IMG/VR virus record: IMGVR_UViG_2529292985_000032
Length of the DNA: 41,694 bases
DNA from: a virus
Taxonomy: Duplodnaviria; Heunggongvirae; Uroviricota; Caudoviricetes
Strand: one strand, 5' to 3'
Position numbers and translations under genes: made by a program. Below, piece after piece: positions 18,467 to 36,556 of the stretch (position 1 is the stretch's first letter; each line of letters opens with the position of its first letter). Below the pieces are notes generated by a model. That model had not been told where the DNA came from, ran no database searches, and saw only the letters and a program-made list of their open reading frames with translations.

Positions 18467-20937
18467 CAGAATCCCCCAACAGTAAGGCGAGGAATAACGG
18501 CAAGAACAGACAGCGGCAACGGATCAAGCTGACGGATTTTTACACGTCCGTTTTTGCCCCAGTTACTGTCCAGTTTCACTTCTACTTTTCCGGTAGCGTC
18601 ATCAACAGGATCATCGTAGAACTCGAATTCACGCTGTGGATATTCGTACCATTTACCGCCGGGAGTAGTCGCCCAGATGCCGCGACTGGCATTCACAACC
18701 AGAGTAACGGACGGGATCACCTGTTTTTTGTCCAGCAGCGTTTCCTGTCCGTTAATGTTGATATCCAGTGTTTCGAATTCAGCAGTTATTGGCAGGCCGA
18801 TGTGCACTACAGCCCCTGGTGATTCAAGCGTGACGGCACCTCCGGAAACTACTTTCTGTGGTTCCACGTTCGCATCAGAGAGGATGTTTACGGTCTGACC
18901 TTCAAGATGAGACAAGCCGCCAAATGCCCGGCACGCCATCTGCCAGTTCGTGGTGGCCACATTCCTGAGGGATGGCGGGACGTTCCTGTTAGCACGAACC
19001 ACTACAGCGGTGTTGCTGGTTACAGAAATAATGTCGCAACGTAATTCTTTTGACACTTCATCGCCAGTATCAGGATCAGTTCCGGTATAAGGGAACTGTA
19101 GTTGCGCACCGACATCACTACTGGTGAAGTACGCACCACCAGAAATACTGATTGTATATTCCACGCGGTAATCCCATTCGCCAGAACCACCAGTGATGGT
19201 CATCGTTCTGTCAGACGTATTTCTTCCATCATAGCTAAGGCCAGAATCAACAAAGAAAGCATCTTCATCGCTGGTAAATAAACGGCTGGACAGCCGCTCG
19301 ATGTATCTCACTGTTTGCCCGTTAACGGTTCGGTTAACGACGAAATACACCGCATCTTCATTGCCTTCGCTGATACTGCATGTGCTTTCATATTTTCCGG
19401 TACTGGATTGTGGTGCCCATGCAAAAACCTGCTGATCACGCAAATAGGTCATCACCAGTAATTTACCGTCATCACGAATGCAGAAGGCGCTGGAGTAAGG
19501 GACAATAGAGAAGCACCAGTCAACAATGCTGTGCTTCTGAAAAAGATGATTGGCAAGGATGGTCAGGTCGTTCCCCTGATAGCCGTCAACATCGAATGAG
19601 TAGGCCAAATCACGGACAACACTGCCTTTCTCCTGGACGAACAGAGCAATATTCGCCACGGCAATTGGTGGGACATTGCTCGAGCCATTTGATCCCTGAG
19701 AGCTGAATGCAAATGATGATGGGGTTAACACTTTGTTCTGGTCGCCGGTGATGACGTACTCACCTCCGGAAGTCAGTGCCACCAGCGAACCGACATCAAT
19801 CAGGTGGCGGATCTCATTAACCTGACGCCCGGCATAGGTGTAGATAATTCTGTCGTCATCCTGCGTAGGATTGCTTTTGCCAAAATCCTTATAATCCCCG
19901 GTACGGCTGGCCCAGATAGTCTGAGGGAACGCAGTCGATGCGGCGAAGTAAAGACGTTGTTGATAATAAACAACAGTGCCAGGATAACCATTAACACTGT
20001 TCCAGGTATATTTAGCCCATTTATAGCTGGCATTATCCTCGCCAACTACCTGCGAAGGGATATAGGAAATCACCTCGGCAGTTGCAGTAGTTCCATTTGC
20101 AGCAGTGATACGGGCAATGCCAAAACCACTGTGCAGATATTCCCACTCAATGCCAGTATCATCATCACCGGATCCGCCCCAGCCATCCCATGATGTGCCT
20201 TCTGTATGCGAAGGGCGCAAAGTACCTGTTTTGCCTGCTGTAACGGCGCGATAGTAGTTACTGTCTGCACGGCGAATATCGCCAATCGACGTACTCTTAC
20301 TGGTTTCCCATACCGGCACTGAATCCACTGCAGGCTGTTCCAGATAGAACAATTTTCCTACCTGCTCCGCGCCAAAAATAGAGGCGCTTGCCGTTAACGT
20401 AATTGTCCCGGTGCTGGCGCTGGCATAAACCGTCACTGACTCGTCAATATTGATATCTTCAAATGGCCCGTTCTTCGTTACCACATCAACCAGTTGCCAG
20501 TTGTCATGAGCATATCGGCGCAACTCTTTCGGCGGGTATGCCGGGTGAACCAGCGTAAGCACGTCGGCGCTTTGCGTGAATTTAATTCGGAACAGATCGG
20601 CTTCAGTATATGGCGTGGCAATTTCATAAATAACATTGCTGCTGTTCAGCACCAACGCACCATCTTTGATAACGCGCATGTACTGGTGTCCGAACTCCAG
20701 AGCATAGGTCTGAACCGTCGAGAACTGGAACGGGATCAGGCGGCATTTCCGATTTGGGTATTTGGCGGCACCGACAAAACGCGTACCAGGTCGATTCTCA
20801 ACGCCGCCATACTGCCGCACGATAAAGTTATCGCACTTGCGCAATGCCACCTGGTACTTCGCCATGTCAATACGCCCGTACAACGACGGTCCAATCTCAC
20901 CACCGGCAAAGCTGGGCTGGATCCAACTGATAGCCAT
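18466..20937 (-). CDS. Tail tubular protein B-like (nozzle)
   Basis: 823 aa; size and position after a ~200-aa tubular-A-like gene as in T7-like tail modules; overlapping stop/start. Confidence 0.55.
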   Translation of the reverse strand: MAISWIQPSFAGGEIGPSLYGRIDMAKYQVALRKCDNFIVRQYGGVENRPGTRFVGAAKYPNRKCRLIPFQFSTVQTYALEFGHQYMRVIKDGALVLNSSNVIYEIATPYTEADLFRIKFTQSADVLTLVHPAYPPKELRRYAHDNWQLVDVVTKNGPFEDINIDESVTVYASASTGTITLTASASIFGAEQVGKLFYLEQPAVDSVPVWETSKSTSIGDIRRADSNYYRAVTAGKTGTLRPSHTEGTSWDGWGGSGDDDTGIEWEYLHSGFGIARITAANGTTATAEVISYIPSQVVGEDNASYKWAKYTWNSVNGYPGTVVYYQQRLYFAASTAFPQTIWASRTGDYKDFGKSNPTQDDDRIIYTYAGRQVNEIRHLIDVGSLVALTSGGEYVITGDQNKVLTPSSFAFSSQGSNGSSNVPPIAVANIALFVQEKGSVVRDLAYSFDVDGYQGNDLTILANHLFQKHSIVDWCFSIVPYSSAFCIRDDGKLLVMTYLRDQQVFAWAPQSSTGKYESTCSISEGNEDAVYFVVNRTVNGQTVRYIERLSSRLFTSDEDAFFVDSGLSYDGRNTSDRTMTITGGSGEWDYRVEYTISISGGAYFTSSDVGAQLQFPYTGTDPDTGDEVSKELRCDIISVTSNTAVVVRANRNVPPSLRNVATTNWQMACRAFGGLSHLEGQTVNILSDANVEPQKVVSGGAVTLESPGAVVHIGLPITAEFETLDININGQETLLDKKQVIPSVTLVVNASRGIWATTPGGKWYEYPQREFEFYDDPVDDATGKVEVKLDSNWGKNGRVKIRQLDPLPLSVLAVIPRLTVGGF

Positions 20938-21915: not shown

Positions 21916-22269
21916 TTACACGCCCAGTTCTTTACGCTTATCTGCGATCTTCTCGCGGAGCGTTTCGGCTTTGGCGTTATGGTGTGGCTTCTCGTTAAAG
22001 AGCAATTCGTACTCTTCACGGAGCTTATCCAGTTCACCATCATCTGACACATCGTTGATGATTTTGGTGCTGGTTGCTGCCATAGACACCTTTCCTGCTA
22101 CCTTTGCTTTTGCCTGTCTGGCTGCATCGTTAACAGGTTCCAGTGCGCTACCAGGCTCACCTTCGTATTCGATTTCTGCCCCCTCCGGCCACAGTGTGTT
22201 ATGGATATGAGAGAGGCGCAGAACGCGGTATCTTGGTTTCTCACCTGACATCGATATCACCTTAACCAA
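21916..22269 (-). CDS. Hypothetical head-module protein
   Basis: 117 aa; overlapping start with upstream gene. Confidence 0.5.
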   Translation of the reverse strand: MVKVISMSGEKPRYRVLRLSHIHNTLWPEGAEIEYEGEPGSALEPVNDAARQAKAKVAGKVSMAATSTKIINDVSDDGELDKLREEYELLFNEKPHHNAKAETLREKIADKRKELGV

Positions 22270-22699
22270 TTACTTTTGAGCGGATCGGATACGGCGTATT
22301 GGCATCAACATCAAGACTGATACCAGCAGTGAATTCGCCAGCCGTTAGTGGGCCAGTTGCGACGGAGTAGTTAACACGCAGATATCGCTTAACACCGGCA
22401 GGCACCTTTGCAGAAACAATTCGTTTACCTGCTGTCAGGGCGGTCTTTGCCAGTGCGCCACTATCATAAATAGTGGTCCATGAGCTGTTATTCTCACTCG
22501 TCTGCAACTGGATGTTTACAGTTGCATCACCGCTTGCCGCGGCGGCTGTGTTAACCAGCGCCCAAAACTCAAGCGGGTAACCCACGCCGATATCACGATG
22601 TTTTCCGTCAATTGGACCGAGATCGATTACGTCAGTAGAAGCCGCGGTATTCGTAACCGCCTGAGCTTCGGAGAACATCAACAGTTTGTCGGTGATCAT
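22262..22699 (-). CDS. Hypothetical capsid-associated protein (possible decoration protein)
   Basis: 145 aa, directly downstream of major capsid gene. Confidence 0.5.
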   Translation of the reverse strand: MITDKLLMFSEAQAVTNTAASTDVIDLGPIDGKHRDIGVGYPLEFWALVNTAAAASGDATVNIQLQTSENNSSWTTIYDSGALAKTALTAGKRIVSAKVPAGVKRYLRVNYSVATGPLTAGEFTAGISLDVDANTPYPIRSKVIG

Positions 22700-22750
22700 C
22701 TTCTTTCTCCATTAGTGGGTCTGTTACGACCCACAGGTTAATAACAGGCG

Positions 22751-26711: not shown

Positions 26712-26748
26712 TTGACATTTAACGCACGAATTATTACCTTTCAGGTAA
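26712..26748 (+). promoter_or_regulatory. Promoter-like TTGACA followed by operator palindrome TTACC-TTTCA-GGTAA (26734-26748)
   Basis: Consensus -35 hexamer at 26712-26717; palindrome overlaps the expected -10 region; upstream of noncoding leader and tRNA. Confidence 0.45.
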
Positions 26749-27070: not shown

Positions 27071-27147
27071 GTGGCATTAGCTCAGTCGGACAGAGCAACC
27101 GCCTTCTAAGCGGTTGGTCGCAGGTTCGAATCCTGCATGCCACGCCA
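27071..27147 (+). tRNA. tRNA-Arg, anticodon UCU (27105-27107), decodes AGA
   Basis: 77 nt cloverleaf: acceptor GTGGCAT/ATGCCAC, D-arm GCTC/GAGC, anticodon stem ACCGC/GCGGT with loop CTTCTAA, T-arm GCAGG-TTCGAAT-CCTGC, discriminator G and encoded CCA. Confidence 0.9.
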
Positions 27148-27344: not shown

Positions 27345-27701
27345 ATGAACGACCAGCAAATCGAAAAAGAAATCGTTGAGAAAGGCAAAACGGCACCGCG
27401 AGTTACGCCTCAATATATCGAAAGCATCATTCTTGAAGAGCATTTCTTTACTGCTTATGACGGCATTCGTGCCGCCAATATGGGCGTTGGCGATTCATGG
27501 ACAGCGCATAACTCTACAGACCTCCTGACTTTCTGCGTACTGGTGCTGAAGAATGGCTTCACCGTCACCGGAGAGAGTGCCTGTGCAAGCCAGGAAAACT
27601 TTGATGCAGAAATTGGTCGGAAGATTGCCCGGCAGAATGCTGTAAACAAAATCTGGATGCTCGAAGGTTACTTGCTGAAGCAGAAGCTAAGCGAGCAATA
27701 A
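27345..27701 (+). CDS. Conserved hypothetical phage accessory protein (118 aa)
   Basis: AAGGTGAG Shine-Dalgarno 4 nt before ATG; terminator downstream; plus-strand unit embedded between terminase and portal. Confidence 0.7.
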   Translation: MNDQQIEKEIVEKGKTAPRVTPQYIESIILEEHFFTAYDGIRAANMGVGDSWTAHNSTDLLTFCVLVLKNGFTVTGESACASQENFDAEIGRKIARQNAVNKIWMLEGYLLKQKLSEQ

Positions 27702-29263: not shown

Positions 29264-29938
29264 TCAGTGATTACCATCCTGACGTTCTTTGAGTCGCTTC
29301 CTGGCTGCTGCTATGCGATCAGCAATTGTCACATTCACATTAACATCCAGACGTTCTTTGAACGCGTTGACATCAACATGCTTACCAATCAGCTCAAGGT
29401 TCTTCACCTTGTCAGGCCATTTAATTTTTTTGAGGATTGTCTCTATCGAATCCTCGTTCATGTTCATGATGGTCGATGACAGATCAAAGCCACTAAGCGT
29501 AGTGCGCCAAATTTTCGGCCACTCACAGATTGGTTTAAGGCTCCCATCGTCGTTGAGGATGTCGATCACGTCCATCTGGTCGATCTCCACCAGGCGCATG
29601 AGAACGTAATCAGCACTGATGCGCATTCGTTTGTTGCGCTCCTCCATCAACTCGGCAATCCGTTTTTGAATGCGTTCATCGCGCATCATGACACTGGCTT
29701 TAACTGCCGCTGTATTTGGGGAGAATCCTGCGTTAATCGCTGCCTGAGTCTGGTTTTCAGGCGTTTTGATGTATGACTGGCAATAAGCCTCCTGCATTGC
29801 TGTTAGTGGCTTAAATTGCGTTGATTTGCGTTTATAGGTTTTAGGTTCAGCAGGCATCATAACCACCGTGGTAATAGTTACCGTTGTGGTAATAGTATCA
29901 TGCAAAATAAAGCCGCCATAGTTGGCGGCAGTATTCAA
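29264..29938 (-). CDS. Terminase small subunit (start uncertain)
   Basis: Track ORF starts at TTG 29938; more likely start is an ATG near 29857 with GGTGG upstream; conserved helix-turn-helix-like core (LTAMQEAYCQSYIK ... INAGFSP). Confidence 0.7.
   Translation of the reverse strand: MNTAANYGGFILHDTITTTVTITTVVMMPAEPKTYKRKSTQFKPLTAMQEAYCQSYIKTPENQTQAAINAGFSPNTAAVKASVMMRDERIQKRIAELMEERNKRMRISADYVLMRLVEIDQMDVIDILNDDGSLKPICEWPKIWRTTLSGFDLSSTIMNMNEDSIETILKKIKWPDKVKNLELIGKHVDVNAFKERLDVNVNVTIADRIAAARKRLKERQDGNH
29878..29892. promoter_or_regulatory. Operator-like palindrome TTACC-GTTGT-GGTAA immediately upstream of terminase small start
   Basis: Perfect half-sites. Confidence 0.45.
29901..29929 (-). 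terminator. Hairpin terminator in the late leader upstream of terminase small gene
   Basis: Minus-strand reading GCCGCC-AACTAT-GGCGGC followed by TTTATTTTG. Confidence 0.5.
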
Positions 29939-29969: not shown

Positions 29970-29983
29970 CGTGACATGTCACA
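29970..29983. repeat. 14-bp element CGTGACATGTCACA, copy 1
   Basis: Overlaps the stop codon of the 29979..30317 gene; identical to 27705-27718. Confidence 0.8.
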
Positions 29984-30317
29984 CTATTAATTTCGTTTCA
30001 TGCCAGCCTTTAGTCACCCAGCATTGCGAGTCACCATTACACGGGCATGAATTAACTGGAACTCTCTCGCCGCACTTACCGCAACGTTTTCTGCTGATCG
30101 ATTTTATACGCCCGCGCACGCGTGCATCATCCTGGCGGATCAGTAACGCTATATACTCACCAAATTCGTAAGGCGCACGCCCGGGGCGACGCGTGGCACA
30201 GTTACGCTCCAGCATTTCAATTTCCTGAGCATCAAGCACAATTTCCAGCTTACGCACACCAGATGCAGCTTGTCTGGCTCTCTGAGCGGCTTTGCGCTCT
30301 GCTGATGATTTAGCCAT
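29979..30317 (-). CDS. Basic protein with C-terminal Cys-rich zinc-ribbon-like region; candidate late-gene regulator (Q position)
   Basis: 112 aa; C-terminal CGKCG ... CPCNGDSQC; sits directly upstream of late leader and terminase; function is positional inference. Confidence 0.4.
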   Translation of the reverse strand: MAKSSAERKAAQRARQAASGVRKLEIVLDAQEIEMLERNCATRRPGRAPYEFGEYIALLIRQDDARVRGRIKSISRKRCGKCGERVPVNSCPCNGDSQCWVTKGWHETKLIV

Positions 30318-33139: not shown

Positions 33140-33484
33140 TCAGAACTCTTCGATATTCCAGCCGCCACCTGCTTTCTTTGGCTTAACCGTTACCCCGATG
33201 ATTCGGAACGGATACTGATCTGCGGCGACTTTGGTTTTCACCCTAGCGTCGTCGGTCCAGAAACCTTTCACTTCATGCAGTTCCATCTCACCAGTGGCGA
33301 GCATCACAGCGAAATCTGGCGTATAGAACGTGTTGTCAGCCAGCCGCAGCTTGATACCCTCGAACCGATACCAGGCGATTTCCCCTGCACGTTTACGCTG
33401 CTCAAGGTGCTGGCAATACGCAGATTCTGTTTTGTTCATCTGGCCTGTTTTGAGTCGACCAAGAGCCTGTATCTGCTTTCTCAT
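33140..33484 (-). CDS. DUF1064-like phage protein
   Basis: 114 aa; family call is recognition-based. Confidence 0.55.
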   Translation of the reverse strand: MRKQIQALGRLKTGQMNKTESAYCQHLEQRKRAGEIAWYRFEGIKLRLADNTFYTPDFAVMLATGEMELHEVKGFWTDDARVKTKVAADQYPFRIIGVTVKPKKAGGGWNIEEF

Positions 33485-33487
33485 GAT

Positions 33488-33502
33488 TTACCCCTGAGGT
33501 AA
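33488..33502. promoter_or_regulatory. Operator-like palindrome TTACC-CCTGA-GGTAA
   Basis: Perfect half-sites; abuts the 33484 start. Confidence 0.45.
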
Positions 33503-33549: not shown

Positions 33550-33564
33550 TTACCCAGAAGGTAA
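33550..33564. promoter_or_regulatory. Operator-like palindrome TTACC-CAGAA-GGTAA
   Basis: Perfect half-sites; 62 bp from the previous site. Confidence 0.45.
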
Positions 33565-35495: not shown

Positions 35496-35510
35496 TTACC
35501 TTTAAGGTGC
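35496..35510. promoter_or_regulatory. Operator-like palindrome TTACC-TTTAA-GGTGC
   Basis: Left half perfect, right half 3/5. Confidence 0.35.
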
Positions 35511-35520
35511 GAATAGATAT

Positions 35521-35544
35521 GAAAAGACCGCCGGATGGCGGTCT
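35521..35544 (-). terminator. tR1-like terminator between Cro-like gene and downstream operon
   Basis: AGACCGCC-GGAT-GGCGGTCT hairpin; minus-strand downstream sequence TTTCATATC. Confidence 0.5.
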
Positions 35545-35565: not shown

Positions 35566-35796
35566 TCATGAGTAGAAGAAGTATGCCAGTTCTGCTTTTG
35601 AGCGCAGCCATTGTCTTGTTTTACAGGCTTTAAAAAGCCCATTCATCAATACTTTACCTGTCATTTTGCGCTTACCTGTTAAGTGAGTCTGGATATAGTG
35701 ACTCGTCGTTCCGGCTTCCTGTGCGAAGGCTTCACGCTCATCCGGAGTAAGTGCAAGCCAGTGCTTTTTGAAATCGAAATGTCCGTTATCGCTCAT
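35566..35796 (-). CDS. Cro-like early regulator (by position)
   Basis: 76-aa ORF divergent from the repressor gene across the operator cluster. Confidence 0.5.
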   Translation of the reverse strand: MSDNGHFDFKKHWLALTPDEREAFAQEAGTTSHYIQTHLTGKRKMTGKVLMNGLFKACKTRQWLRSKAELAYFFYS

Positions 35797-35832
35797 AGCT
35801 ATTGCCTGATATTTATTTCAGATAATAAATAT

Positions 35833-35895
35833 TCACCCATAAGGTAACAAAAATCAAGGATAGTTACCTATGGGGTGCATTTACCTGTTGGGTAA
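35833..35895. promoter_or_regulatory. Immunity-region operator cluster: three tandem 15-bp sites
   Basis: TCACC-CATAA-GGTAA (35833-35847), TTACC-TATGG-GGTGC (35864-35878), TTACC-TGTTG-GGTAA (35881-35895) between divergent Cro-like and repressor genes. Confidence 0.65.
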
Positions 35896-35950
35896 TATTG
35901 CTTTAAATTGAATCATCTACTGATTCATATATGAGGCGATTTTCCAGAAA

Positions 35951-36535
35951 ATGAAAAGTATCCAGGACGTCCGCAGGCAAAATCTCAACGACTTGATCGA
36001 CCGTGAATTCAATGGTGTTCAGACGCGGATGGCAGAAAAACTTGGAACTCAGGCAAATCTGGTAAACCGCTGGGCTCTTGGCAAGAAGGTTATCGGCGAC
36101 CAGGTTGCGCGAAAAATTGAAGCTGCCGCCAATAAACCACGTAACTGGCTTGATATCGATCGCTCGCTTTCTCAGGAGGGTTTTCAGCCTGTTGGACCAA
36201 GCGACATTGGTCAGCTGGCGGCTCACAACCTGGAACGCTGGATGAGTGAAAGCCGCGACCTTTCAACTCAGGGAAAACTTCACCGCGCATCCGGCGTCGC
36301 CCAGGTGACAATCAGCCGCCTGTTAAACAATGAGGTCAGCGTTTCCATTTCCACTCTGGAGAATGTTGCATCTGCATTCGGGCGTCACGGATATGAACTA
36401 CTGATTCACCCGCACGACCCTGCAACTATCAACTATGACCGCTCGCGCTACGCATTGTTACCTGAAACCGAGAAAGCAAAGATCGAAAGTTACATTGAAT
36501 TTGTCATCAACCAGAACGAAAAAAACAAACAATAA
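35951..36535 (+). CDS. Prophage repressor, two helix-turn-helix-like domains, no S24 peptidase domain
   Basis: 194 aa; XRE-type HTH-like segments near residues 20-45 and 115-140; no Ala-Gly/Ser-Lys autocleavage module visible; no obvious SD (leaderless-like). Confidence 0.7.
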   Translation: MKSIQDVRRQNLNDLIDREFNGVQTRMAEKLGTQANLVNRWALGKKVIGDQVARKIEAAANKPRNWLDIDRSLSQEGFQPVGPSDIGQLAAHNLERWMSESRDLSTQGKLHRASGVAQVTISRLLNNEVSVSISTLENVASAFGRHGYELLIHPHDPATINYDRSRYALLPETEKAKIESYIEFVINQNEKNKQ

Positions 36536-36556
36536 AATCATATTTTTCAGTAAGTA

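Follow-up and report, generated by a model that had tools for sequence, protein, structure and literature searches.

The immunity region of an Escherichia coli prophage of the phiV10/epsilon15 type, contained in IMG/VR virus record IMGVR_UViG_2529292985_000032 (41,694 nucleotides of Caudoviricetes DNA, hereafter called the window), is very probably a switch of the kind described for phage SPC32H, in which a repressor, Rep, is inactivated by a small antirepressor, Ant, under the control of LexA. In such a switch, the N-terminal helix-turn-helix (HTH) domain of Rep would bind 15- to 17-bp sites of the form (A)TTACC-N5-GGTAA(T), a second HTH-like domain would mediate dimerisation, and the C-terminal tail would build the DNA-binding tetramer. 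Rep bound at the operators O_R1 and O_R2, which flank the −35 element of the leftward promoter PR, would keep the cro-like gene and the replication operon off, and O_R3, on the rep side, would probably serve in autoregulation of rep, through either activation or autorepression. Operator pairs spaced by 62 bp enclose the promoter PL and also a promoter that follows the replication genes; one tetramer would most likely join the two members of each pair. Additional operators precede terS, gp3/portal, the lysis region and ant. DNA damage would cause the inactivation of LexA, which would free the LexA box of ant; the Ant protein would then bind Rep, dismantle its tetramer and take it off the DNA, with the Rep chain remaining uncut. 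Induction would be possible with a non-cleavable Rep because Ant, made under LexA control, inactivates it.

Four features of an SPC32H-type switch can be examined in sequence, and all four are present, namely a homologous Rep, its three-part architecture, an ant gene in the corresponding position, and a LexA box. These homologies, the LexA box, the lack of a protease module, and the enrichment, placement and geometry of the operators were computed here. Comparisons were made with phages epsilon15, SPC32H and Tyrion, with Klebsiella phage BUCT711 and with seven prophages (from other Enterobacterales and one Pseudomonas assembly), and cover 12 relatives in total when others are included.

The open reading frame (ORF) list confirms the boundaries that an initial annotation of this region had given for rep and for the divergent cro-like gene (Table 1), including the length of 194 residues for Rep. 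In a phmmer search of PDB sequences, residues 1–190 of Rep match residues 2–197 of chain 5D50_A (E 4e-42), which is the 'Repressor' of the SPC32H Rep–Ant complex. The protein is 100% identical to p40 of phiV10 and to ORF21 of phage vB_EcoP_ZX5 (ZX5), and the phiV10 record describes p40 as having 'two helix-turn-helix motifs; similar to putative repressor epsilon15p38'. Matches to Rep are found in 37 phage records. Overexpression of ZX5 ORF21, the identical protein, has been reported to abolish free phage and to reduce holin and endolysin transcripts by more than 99.9% (PMC9782041).

Pfam profiles detect HTH_3 in two stretches of Rep (best 106–147) and a YdaS-like HTH at residues 21–61. An AlphaFold2 (AF2) model built with 31 homologues (mean predicted local distance difference test, pLDDT, 74) is all-helical, with two bundles of four to five helices (residues 4–59 and 86–151) and a helical tail (164–193); stretches of low confidence (pLDDT below 50) fall at residues 73–84 and 157–163. 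The top Foldseek matches of the model are 5D50 and 5D4Z, and its C-terminal half superposes on 5D4Z with a template modelling (TM) score of 0.81 and a root-mean-square deviation of 2.5 Å. As modelled, Rep has the same three parts as the SPC32H protein, an HTH DNA-binding domain, an HTH-like middle domain and a tail, with the roles of these domains taken from the literature. For SPC32H Rep, PMC9986798 describes an N-terminal DNA-binding domain, a middle dimerisation domain (MDD) and a C-terminal domain (CAD) that tetramerises and binds the antirepressor, and also states that, in structural terms, the mechanism of repression 'has not been extensively characterized'. PMC9638917 describes a tetramer on palindromic sites in which the DNA-binding pairs come from different dimers, and an Ant tetramer that splits the Rep tetramer. 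By analogy with this SPC32H literature, we assume the same tetrameric state, domain roles, mode of Ant action and LexA control for the window.

Because the second HTH accounts for dimerisation in the SPC32H structure, its counterpart in Rep is, by analogy, a protein–protein module and not a second reader of DNA. The initial description of a dual-HTH repressor is therefore correct in structural terms, since two HTH-type domains are present, but only the N-terminal one is DNA-binding according to papers that cite the SPC32H structure.

The initial annotation had also noted that the repressor shows no S24 peptidase module, and a domain search bears this out, with HTH_3 found and no S24 match at E ≤ 1. 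No signal of S24 or of another protease was found in Rep with Pfam at that threshold, with PHROGs, with PDB sequences, or with the AF2 model through Foldseek, and none of 86 Rep homologue clusters carries S24 (PF00717). We therefore reject a cryptic protease, for which all of these searches came back blank. Because the S24 domain was looked for and is absent, Rep is not an autocleaving repressor of the lambda CI or LexA type. The protein also contains no Ala-Gly or Cys-Gly dipeptide, and this absence, together with that of S24, indirectly supports the prediction that Rep is not cleaved during the SOS response.

The antirepressor candidate is encoded far from the immunity region. Ant matches chain 5D50_E ('Anti-repressor protein') with E 8.5e-46 and is 85% identical to SPC32H Ant by tblastn, and its gene occupies the position of SPC32H ant, with the tail genes on one side and the divergent tailspike gene on the other. 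Ant is present in 35 phage records, which are essentially the same phages as the 37 with a match to Rep. All annotated phiV10-type phage records that were found (phiV10, ZX5, PAS61, TL-2011b and others) give the Ant homologue the label 'hypothetical protein', and so does the PGAP annotation of L003, a close E. coli relative of the window prophage. Upstream of ant is a LexA box that aligns with the boxes of SPC32H, epsilon15 and BUCT711, from which LexA control of ant is predicted here. The window has only two exact occurrences of CTGT-N8-ACAG. The other, at 22721, has a GC-rich spacer and lies within a long coding ORF (22262-22699...22751-23743 region), and was discounted as a chance match.

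For SPC32H, a review (PMC7380047) summarises the work of Kim and Ryu (2013) as showing that the antirepressor, produced once LexA has cleaved itself, blocks the repressor by protein–protein contact. In addition, prophages of the phiV10 species in gut E. coli showed 21- and 47-fold induction by a microcin classed as DNA-damaging (bioRxiv 10.64898/2026.05.26.727859), which is consistent with SOS control. Induction of this region by DNA damage, in the roughly 10% of complete E. coli genomes that contain it, should accordingly depend on the Ant homologue.

The operators proposed for Rep extend well beyond the immunity region. Copies of TTACC-N5-GGTAA were counted with mismatches scored against that motif and compared with the counts in 100 shuffles of the window. 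The window contains eight exact and three one-mismatch copies (11 in total; Table 1), compared to 0.85 ± 0.90 expected at no more than one mismatch, and none of the 100 shuffles reaches 11. When O_R2, with two mismatches, is added, all 12 sites are intergenic; about 7.4% of the L003 genome is non-coding. The motif is likewise enriched in SPC32H (18 copies versus 0.48 expected), Tyrion (15 versus 0.75), BUCT711 (13 versus 0.42) and also epsilon15. Operators occupy equivalent places in each genome, namely before terS, before gp3/portal, in the gap between ant and the tailspike gene, upstream of the lysis cassette, at O_L, at O_R, and downstream of the replication genes. In the GenBank record of epsilon15, seven of the sites are marked as protein_bind features with the label 'repressor / lysogeny'.

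The three O_R sites are therefore one node of a phage-wide operator set. They had been reported in the initial annotation as three tandem operators with TTACC/GGTAA half-sites, two of them only 2 bp apart; the sites are present as described, with one, two and no mismatches, but they do not constitute the whole operator system, which comprises at least 12 sites across the phage. Within the 154 bp between the cro-like gene and rep, the centre of O_R2 is 31 bp from that of O_R1 and 17 bp from that of O_R3. One half-site of O_R1 is imperfect (TCACC/GGTGA) in nearly all relatives examined, and the position of O_R2 is kept in all 12. The three sites, their spacing and the TTGATT hexamer between O_R1 and O_R2 are kept column for column in Tyrion, BUCT711, epsilon15 and SPC32H, and the arrangement is also kept in the seven further prophages.

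The assignments of operators to promoters, like the looping across 62 bp and the role of O_R3, are our interpretation of this arrangement. We infer that TTGATT is the −35 element of PR, with a −10 element that overlaps the outer half of O_R1; a promoter scan gives an overlapping alternative, TTGTTA-17-TATTAT at 35850–35822. With TTGATT between O_R1 and O_R2 and the −10 element over O_R1, Rep bound at both operators (31 bp apart, or three helical turns) would occlude PR. The product of the downstream gene may reasonably be called Cro-like, as its position and size fit. It matches PHROG 35 ('transcriptional repressor', E 1.5e-11) and has no Pfam match and no PDB sequence match. Its AF2 model, made from the single sequence, has five helices (pLDDT 78), and Foldseek matches of this model to YdaS-type and lambda-repressor-like folds are non-significant (E at least 1.7, TM about 0.55). 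The weak fourth operator-like site downstream of the cro terminator has one-mismatch counterparts in the equivalent gap 3′ of the cro-like gene in Tyrion (35365) and BUCT711 (6032).

The operators recur in two geometries. Pairs spaced by 62 bp bracket PL, which drives the early-left operon (36689 onward, with RecE/RecT, xis-like genes and a methylase), and a conserved element that resembles a promoter and follows the replication genes. Both 62-bp pairs are found in the window, epsilon15, SPC32H and Tyrion, and BUCT711 has a spacing of 62 bp at the post-replication site and 63 bp at PL. Among the seven additional prophages, the 62-bp spacing is seen in six at PL and in five at the post-replication promoter. 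The epsilon15 counterparts of the post-replication pair are an annotated site at 35906–35922 and a site at 35969 found in the motif scan. Because 62 bp corresponds to about six helical turns, these pairs most likely represent two operators held on the same face by one tetramer, with the promoter predicted to lie in the loop. As such, the conserved pairs offer a testable model for promoter shutdown by a tetrameric repressor.

The second geometry is side by side, as for O_R2 and O_R3 and for the pair in front of terS. The terS pair is intergenic only if terS begins at ATG 29857, as in epsilon15 and SPC32H; both PGAP and the ORF list extend the gene to an upstream TTG at 29938, which buries the operators at 29860–29892 within it. 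The epsilon15 counterparts are at 12 (annotated) and 30 (motif scan). No sigma-70 promoter was detected in the scan at this pair, which might act as a roadblock to read-through or by masking the ribosome-binding site. The single operator upstream of the lysis region has counterparts in epsilon15 (24704), SPC32H (24782) and Tyrion (26408). Near the operator in the gap between ant and the tailspike gene, we also observed a conserved block upstream of the tailspike gene (8728–8760) that carries a lone ATTACC half-site (TATTACC..AAAAACC.TATATG.AT) and is present in four phages.

Table 1. Coordinates of the Rep/Ant regulatory features in the window. Mismatches are relative to TTACC-N5-GGTAA; promoter, operator and domain assignments are predictions.
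Feature	Coordinates	Strand	Sequence	Remarks
Operator, lysis region	2988–3002			One mismatch; between the lysis cassette and divergent esterase/acyltransferase genes
Operator, ant/tailspike gap	8779–8793			Exact; between the divergent ant and tailspike genes; epsilon15 counterpart 19895–19911 annotated as repressor site
LexA box	8833–8848		CTGTATATTCATACAG	Exact CTGT-N8-ACAG; 21 nt upstream of the ant ATG
ant	8870–9127	+		85-residue antirepressor, predicted inactivator of Rep; 27 kb from rep
Operator, gp3/portal	26734–26748			Exact; between the gp3/portal operon and the tRNA-Arg gene; epsilon15 counterpart 2931–2947 annotated
terS operator pair	29860–29874 and 29878–29892	−		One mismatch and exact; 18 bp centre to centre; between a terminator (29929–29912) and the terS ATG at 29857
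Post-replication operator pair	33488–33502 and 33550–33564	−		Both exact; 62 bp apart; bracket a conserved promoter-like element (TATTGAT...TTTAAT)
Weak fourth operator-like site	35496–35510		TTACCTTTAAGGTGC	Downstream of the cro terminator
Intrinsic terminator after cro	35525–35544	−		From terminator scan
cro-like gene	35566–35796	−		76 residues; homologous to epsilon15 gp39
O_R1	35833–35847		TCACCCATAAGGTAA	One mismatch; overlaps the spacer and −10 of PR, which drives cro leftward
PR −35 hexamer (putative)	35851–35856	−	AAAAATCAA	TTGATT, between O_R1 and O_R2; invariant in five phages; −10 near 35828–35833
O_R2	35864–35878		TTACCTATGGGGTGC	Two mismatches; weak, with left half perfect and right half only GGT; 2 bp from O_R3
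O_R3	35881–35895		TTACCTGTTGGGTAA	Exact; nearest rep; sole perfect O_R site
rep	35951–36535	+		194-residue prophage repressor, predicted non-cleavable; matches 5D50_A, identical to phiV10 p40
Rep domains	residues ~1–70, ~86–152, ~153–194			N-terminal HTH, DNA-binding; second HTH-like, dimerisation; tail, tetramerisation and Ant binding (roles from PMC9986798 and PMC9638917)
Intrinsic terminator after rep	36556–36575	+		From terminator scan; annotated in phiV10
O_L2	36593–36607		TTACCTTGCAGGTAA	Exact; 20 bp upstream of the PL −35
PL	36627–36655	+		TTGACA-17-AATTAT; 10 of 12 consensus matches; TTGAC invariant in five phages
O_L1	36655–36669		TTACCTCAACGGTAA	Exact; adjoins the PL −10, over the start region; 62 bp centre to centre from O_L2

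The constancy of the motif has a counterpart in the protein. In the third helix of the N-terminal domain, the stretch N36-L-V-N-R-W41 is invariant among Rep proteins that are 42–78% identical overall, which fits the invariant TTACC half-site, and both are unchanged in phages of Escherichia, Salmonella, Enterobacter and Klebsiella. From these sequences, the genus Uetakevirus seems to have a single operator specificity in common, in contrast to the lambdoid phages, and this predicts cross-immunity at the level of DNA binding. A broader and tentative proposal, which we consider possible though doubtful, is that this specificity has stayed fixed in Uetakeviruses from five or more host genera and gates every phage transcription unit, through promoter-bracketing 62-bp pairs that one tetramer would draw into micro-loops and through side-by-side pairs spaced by 17–18 bp. 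In this proposal, the strongest O_R site lies beside rep and not over PR, and the operator beside ant would couple Rep to its own inactivator. If true, cross-immunity is expected even where the hosts differ, as for epsilon15 and phiV10.

Several other explanations for the behaviour of this region can be weighed against a Rep/Ant/LexA switch. Inactivation of Rep by RecA-stimulated self-cleavage, as for lambda CI, is suggested only by a lambda-like layout, in which PR and rep diverge around three O_R sites and an O_L/PL region follows rep. However, Rep gives no protease signal and lacks both cleavage-type dipeptides, and its whole length is covered by the domains of the SPC32H Rep structure, a protein described as non-cleaved and inactivated by Ant, so that self-cleavage is almost certainly not the route of induction. 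A second possibility is that induction depends mainly on something other than the small LexA-controlled Ant, such as a Bro-N antirepressor, competition by Cro, or dilution of Rep. The ZX5 study names a Bro-N protein (ORF4) as the antirepressor and reports fewer prophages upon its overexpression (PMC9782041), which speaks against a primary role for the small Ant; moreover, ZX5 lysogens release phage spontaneously, and a second, larger protein whose C-terminal domain resembles Ant occurs in some relatives (Tyrion gp20; PHROG 1760; extra tblastn places). Nevertheless, Pfam searches of the early-right and accessory ORFs yield no Bro-N antirepressor of the ZX5 kind in the window, and a tblastn search with Ant finds only one Ant-like sequence there. 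The small Ant and its LexA box are also kept across the genus, and phiV10-species prophages respond to a microcin of the DNA-damaging class. Overall, a main route of induction other than the small Ant appears very improbable for this prophage.

It could also be that TTACC-N5-GGTAA is recognised mainly by another protein, either the Cro-like protein or a gp49-like regulator (29979–30317). In lambda, Cro and CI share operators, and such sharing is plausible here as well; a late regulator, too, would fit the sites before late and lysis genes. This explanation is hard to reconcile with sites that flank rep on both sides in every relative examined and with the invariance of the recognition-helix stretch in Rep. 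Furthermore, the epsilon15 annotators attribute the sites to the repressor, and papers citing the SPC32H study describe Rep on palindromic sites. We judge it very improbable that a protein other than Rep is the main reader of the motif.

How rep itself is expressed is a separate matter. The initial annotation had pointed to a start without a Shine-Dalgarno (SD) sequence, reminiscent of the leaderless lambda cI transcript, and the first part of this statement is borne out. The only purine-rich element upstream of the rep ATG is GAGG at 35933–35936, 14 nt from the start, which is too far for a normal SD, and no SD precedes rep in the window or in any of the 12 relatives. This conserved absence supports non-canonical initiation. 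A leaderless mRNA with its first nucleotide at the A of the AUG would agree with the lack of an SD 5–10 nt before the ATG and with a weak −10-like GATTTT (TATTTT in Tyrion) located 7 nt upstream of it. However, this element is poor and is not conserved in the epsilon15 and Klebsiella lineages, and the scan finds no promoter there. The better-conserved TTGAAT-16-TATGAG would give a leader of about 8–10 nt, and a short A-rich unstructured leader explains the observations equally well. A leaderless rep mRNA is thus a possibility that we view with some doubt.

A consensus scan gives no promoter on the + strand between O_R3 and the rep ATG. Candidates identified by hand (TTGAAT-16-TATGAG, TAATAT overlapping O_R3, and GATTTT 7 nt before the ATG) were set aside as poor or unconserved across lineages. 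A 7-codon upstream ORF (MRRFSRK) at 35931–35954, whose TGA stop codon shares bases with the rep ATG (ATGA), is found in the window and in two of the seven added prophages and is absent from Tyrion. As a coupling device this ORF was rejected as probably fortuitous, given its sparse conservation and lack of an SD.

Besides the Bro-N report, certain points count against a direct transfer of the SPC32H mechanism to this prophage. Rep is only about 42% identical to SPC32H Rep (54% in the N-terminal domain, 33% in the dimerisation domain and 45% in the tail), and the oligomeric state and the contacts with Ant are therefore extrapolated. The binding of Rep at the operators is a prediction from sequence, the promoter of rep and the direction of its autoregulation are not readable from the sequence, and the Cro-like protein may use the same sites.

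Novelty, which the initial annotation had implied, is not supported, as the system has been published and is partly annotated in GenBank. The mechanism has been solved for SPC32H, a member of the same genus; the identical repressor has been annotated and tested; and most of the equivalent operators are in the public record. The switch is therefore already known and, in this sense, ordinary. What is modestly interesting is how Rep represses, including the 62-bp and 17- to 18-bp geometries, the strongest site beside rep, the operator next to ant, and the shared specificity.

The closest known system is that of SPC32H (Kim and Ryu 2013; Kim et al. 2016; PDB 5D50, 5D4Z), which shares with the window the genus, the gene order, the three-part Rep, an Ant of about 85% identity in the same place, the LexA box, and the operator motif with its genomic places. 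Apart from the divergence of Rep, the window differs in that O_R2 is degenerate where it is perfect in SPC32H, O_R1 has its imperfect half on the other side, O_L has two sites where SPC32H and epsilon15 have three, and the host is E. coli. The records of phiV10 and ZX5, which encode the identical protein (p40 and ORF21), leave the operators unannotated, and ZX5 additionally has the Bro-N candidate that is absent here. Epsilon15 (NC_004775), whose Rep (gp38) is 42% identical, has the same 17-bp ATTACC-N5-GGTAAT sites before terS and gp3, in the tailspike/ant gap, at O_L, and downstream of the replication genes. Its record does not mark the three O_R sites, which the motif scan finds at 33341, 33358 and 33388.

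Compared to lambda CI/Cro, the region is alike in that the PR and rep promoters diverge from a segment with three operators, further operators at PL lie downstream of rep, repression is predicted to be cooperative and oligomeric, and the repressor gene lacks an SD. It differs from lambda in having no S24 module and, as predicted, no RecA-mediated cleavage, in tetramerisation through what PMC9986798 describes as a p53-like C-terminal tail, in the strongest site being O_R3 beside rep rather than a site over PR, and in the presence of operators at late, lysis and antirepressor loci.

Antirepressors of other phages provide looser parallels. Ant is reportedly distinct in structure from the Tum-type antirepressors, as Kim and Ryu are said to have noted in 2013. 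In P22, the ant gene is controlled by Arc and is not known to be under LexA. Control of P22 ant by Mnt is described in a review (PMC7380047). The same review describes, for phage 186 (Tum), the Gifsy and Fels-2 prophages and the P22 immI Ant, a non-cleavable repressor inactivated by a small protein that is encoded away from the immunity region, with the gene under LexA control in 186 and Gifsy. Rco of the Bacillus plasmid pLS20 combines an N-terminal XRE-type DNA-binding domain with a p53-like tetramerisation domain and an antirepressor partner, according to PMC9986798. Unlike Rep, it is without a middle dimerisation domain and belongs to a different host and element; looping has been demonstrated for Rco, whereas for Rep it is only proposed.

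The window as a whole is a Uetakevirus prophage of E. coli. Over 2 kb around the immunity region, it is 97–98% identical to Escherichia phage phiV10, vB_EcoP_ZX5, PAS61 and other Uetakevirus podophages, and this region is found in 545 of 5426 complete E. coli genomes. In a chromosome that is 99.8% identical, the element adjoins guaA. The left end of the window (1–870) contains the host gene yfgI (328–867), and its last base falls in the start codon of the integrase gene (40444–41694 end). Because host DNA is present at one end and the sequence stops at the integrase start codon, the window is a prophage at the guaA locus that ends before one attachment site. Its layout is lambdoid, with the leftward cro-like gene followed by replication (DnaT-like/P) and nin-like genes, and with rep reading rightward to a terminator and then PL, from which the RecE/RecT, xis-like and methylase genes lead to int.

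Some additional features of the window were noted. A tRNA-Arg gene (anticodon TCT) at 27071–27147 lies on the strand opposite to the structural genes and beside a Gp49-family gene (27345–27701), and the predicted Rep operator at 26734 is upstream of this phage-borne tRNA. The adjacent ORFs 5204–5659 and 5717–6136 each match part of Acyl_transf_3 (profile positions 4–147 and 188–292), and look like a split or frameshifted O-antigen acyltransferase located beside an intact one (3942–4892). Finally, the RecE-like nuclease (37140–37961) and RecT (37931–38899) are separate overlapping ORFs in the window, whereas the phiV10 record shows a single RecE-RecT fusion (PhiV10p37).

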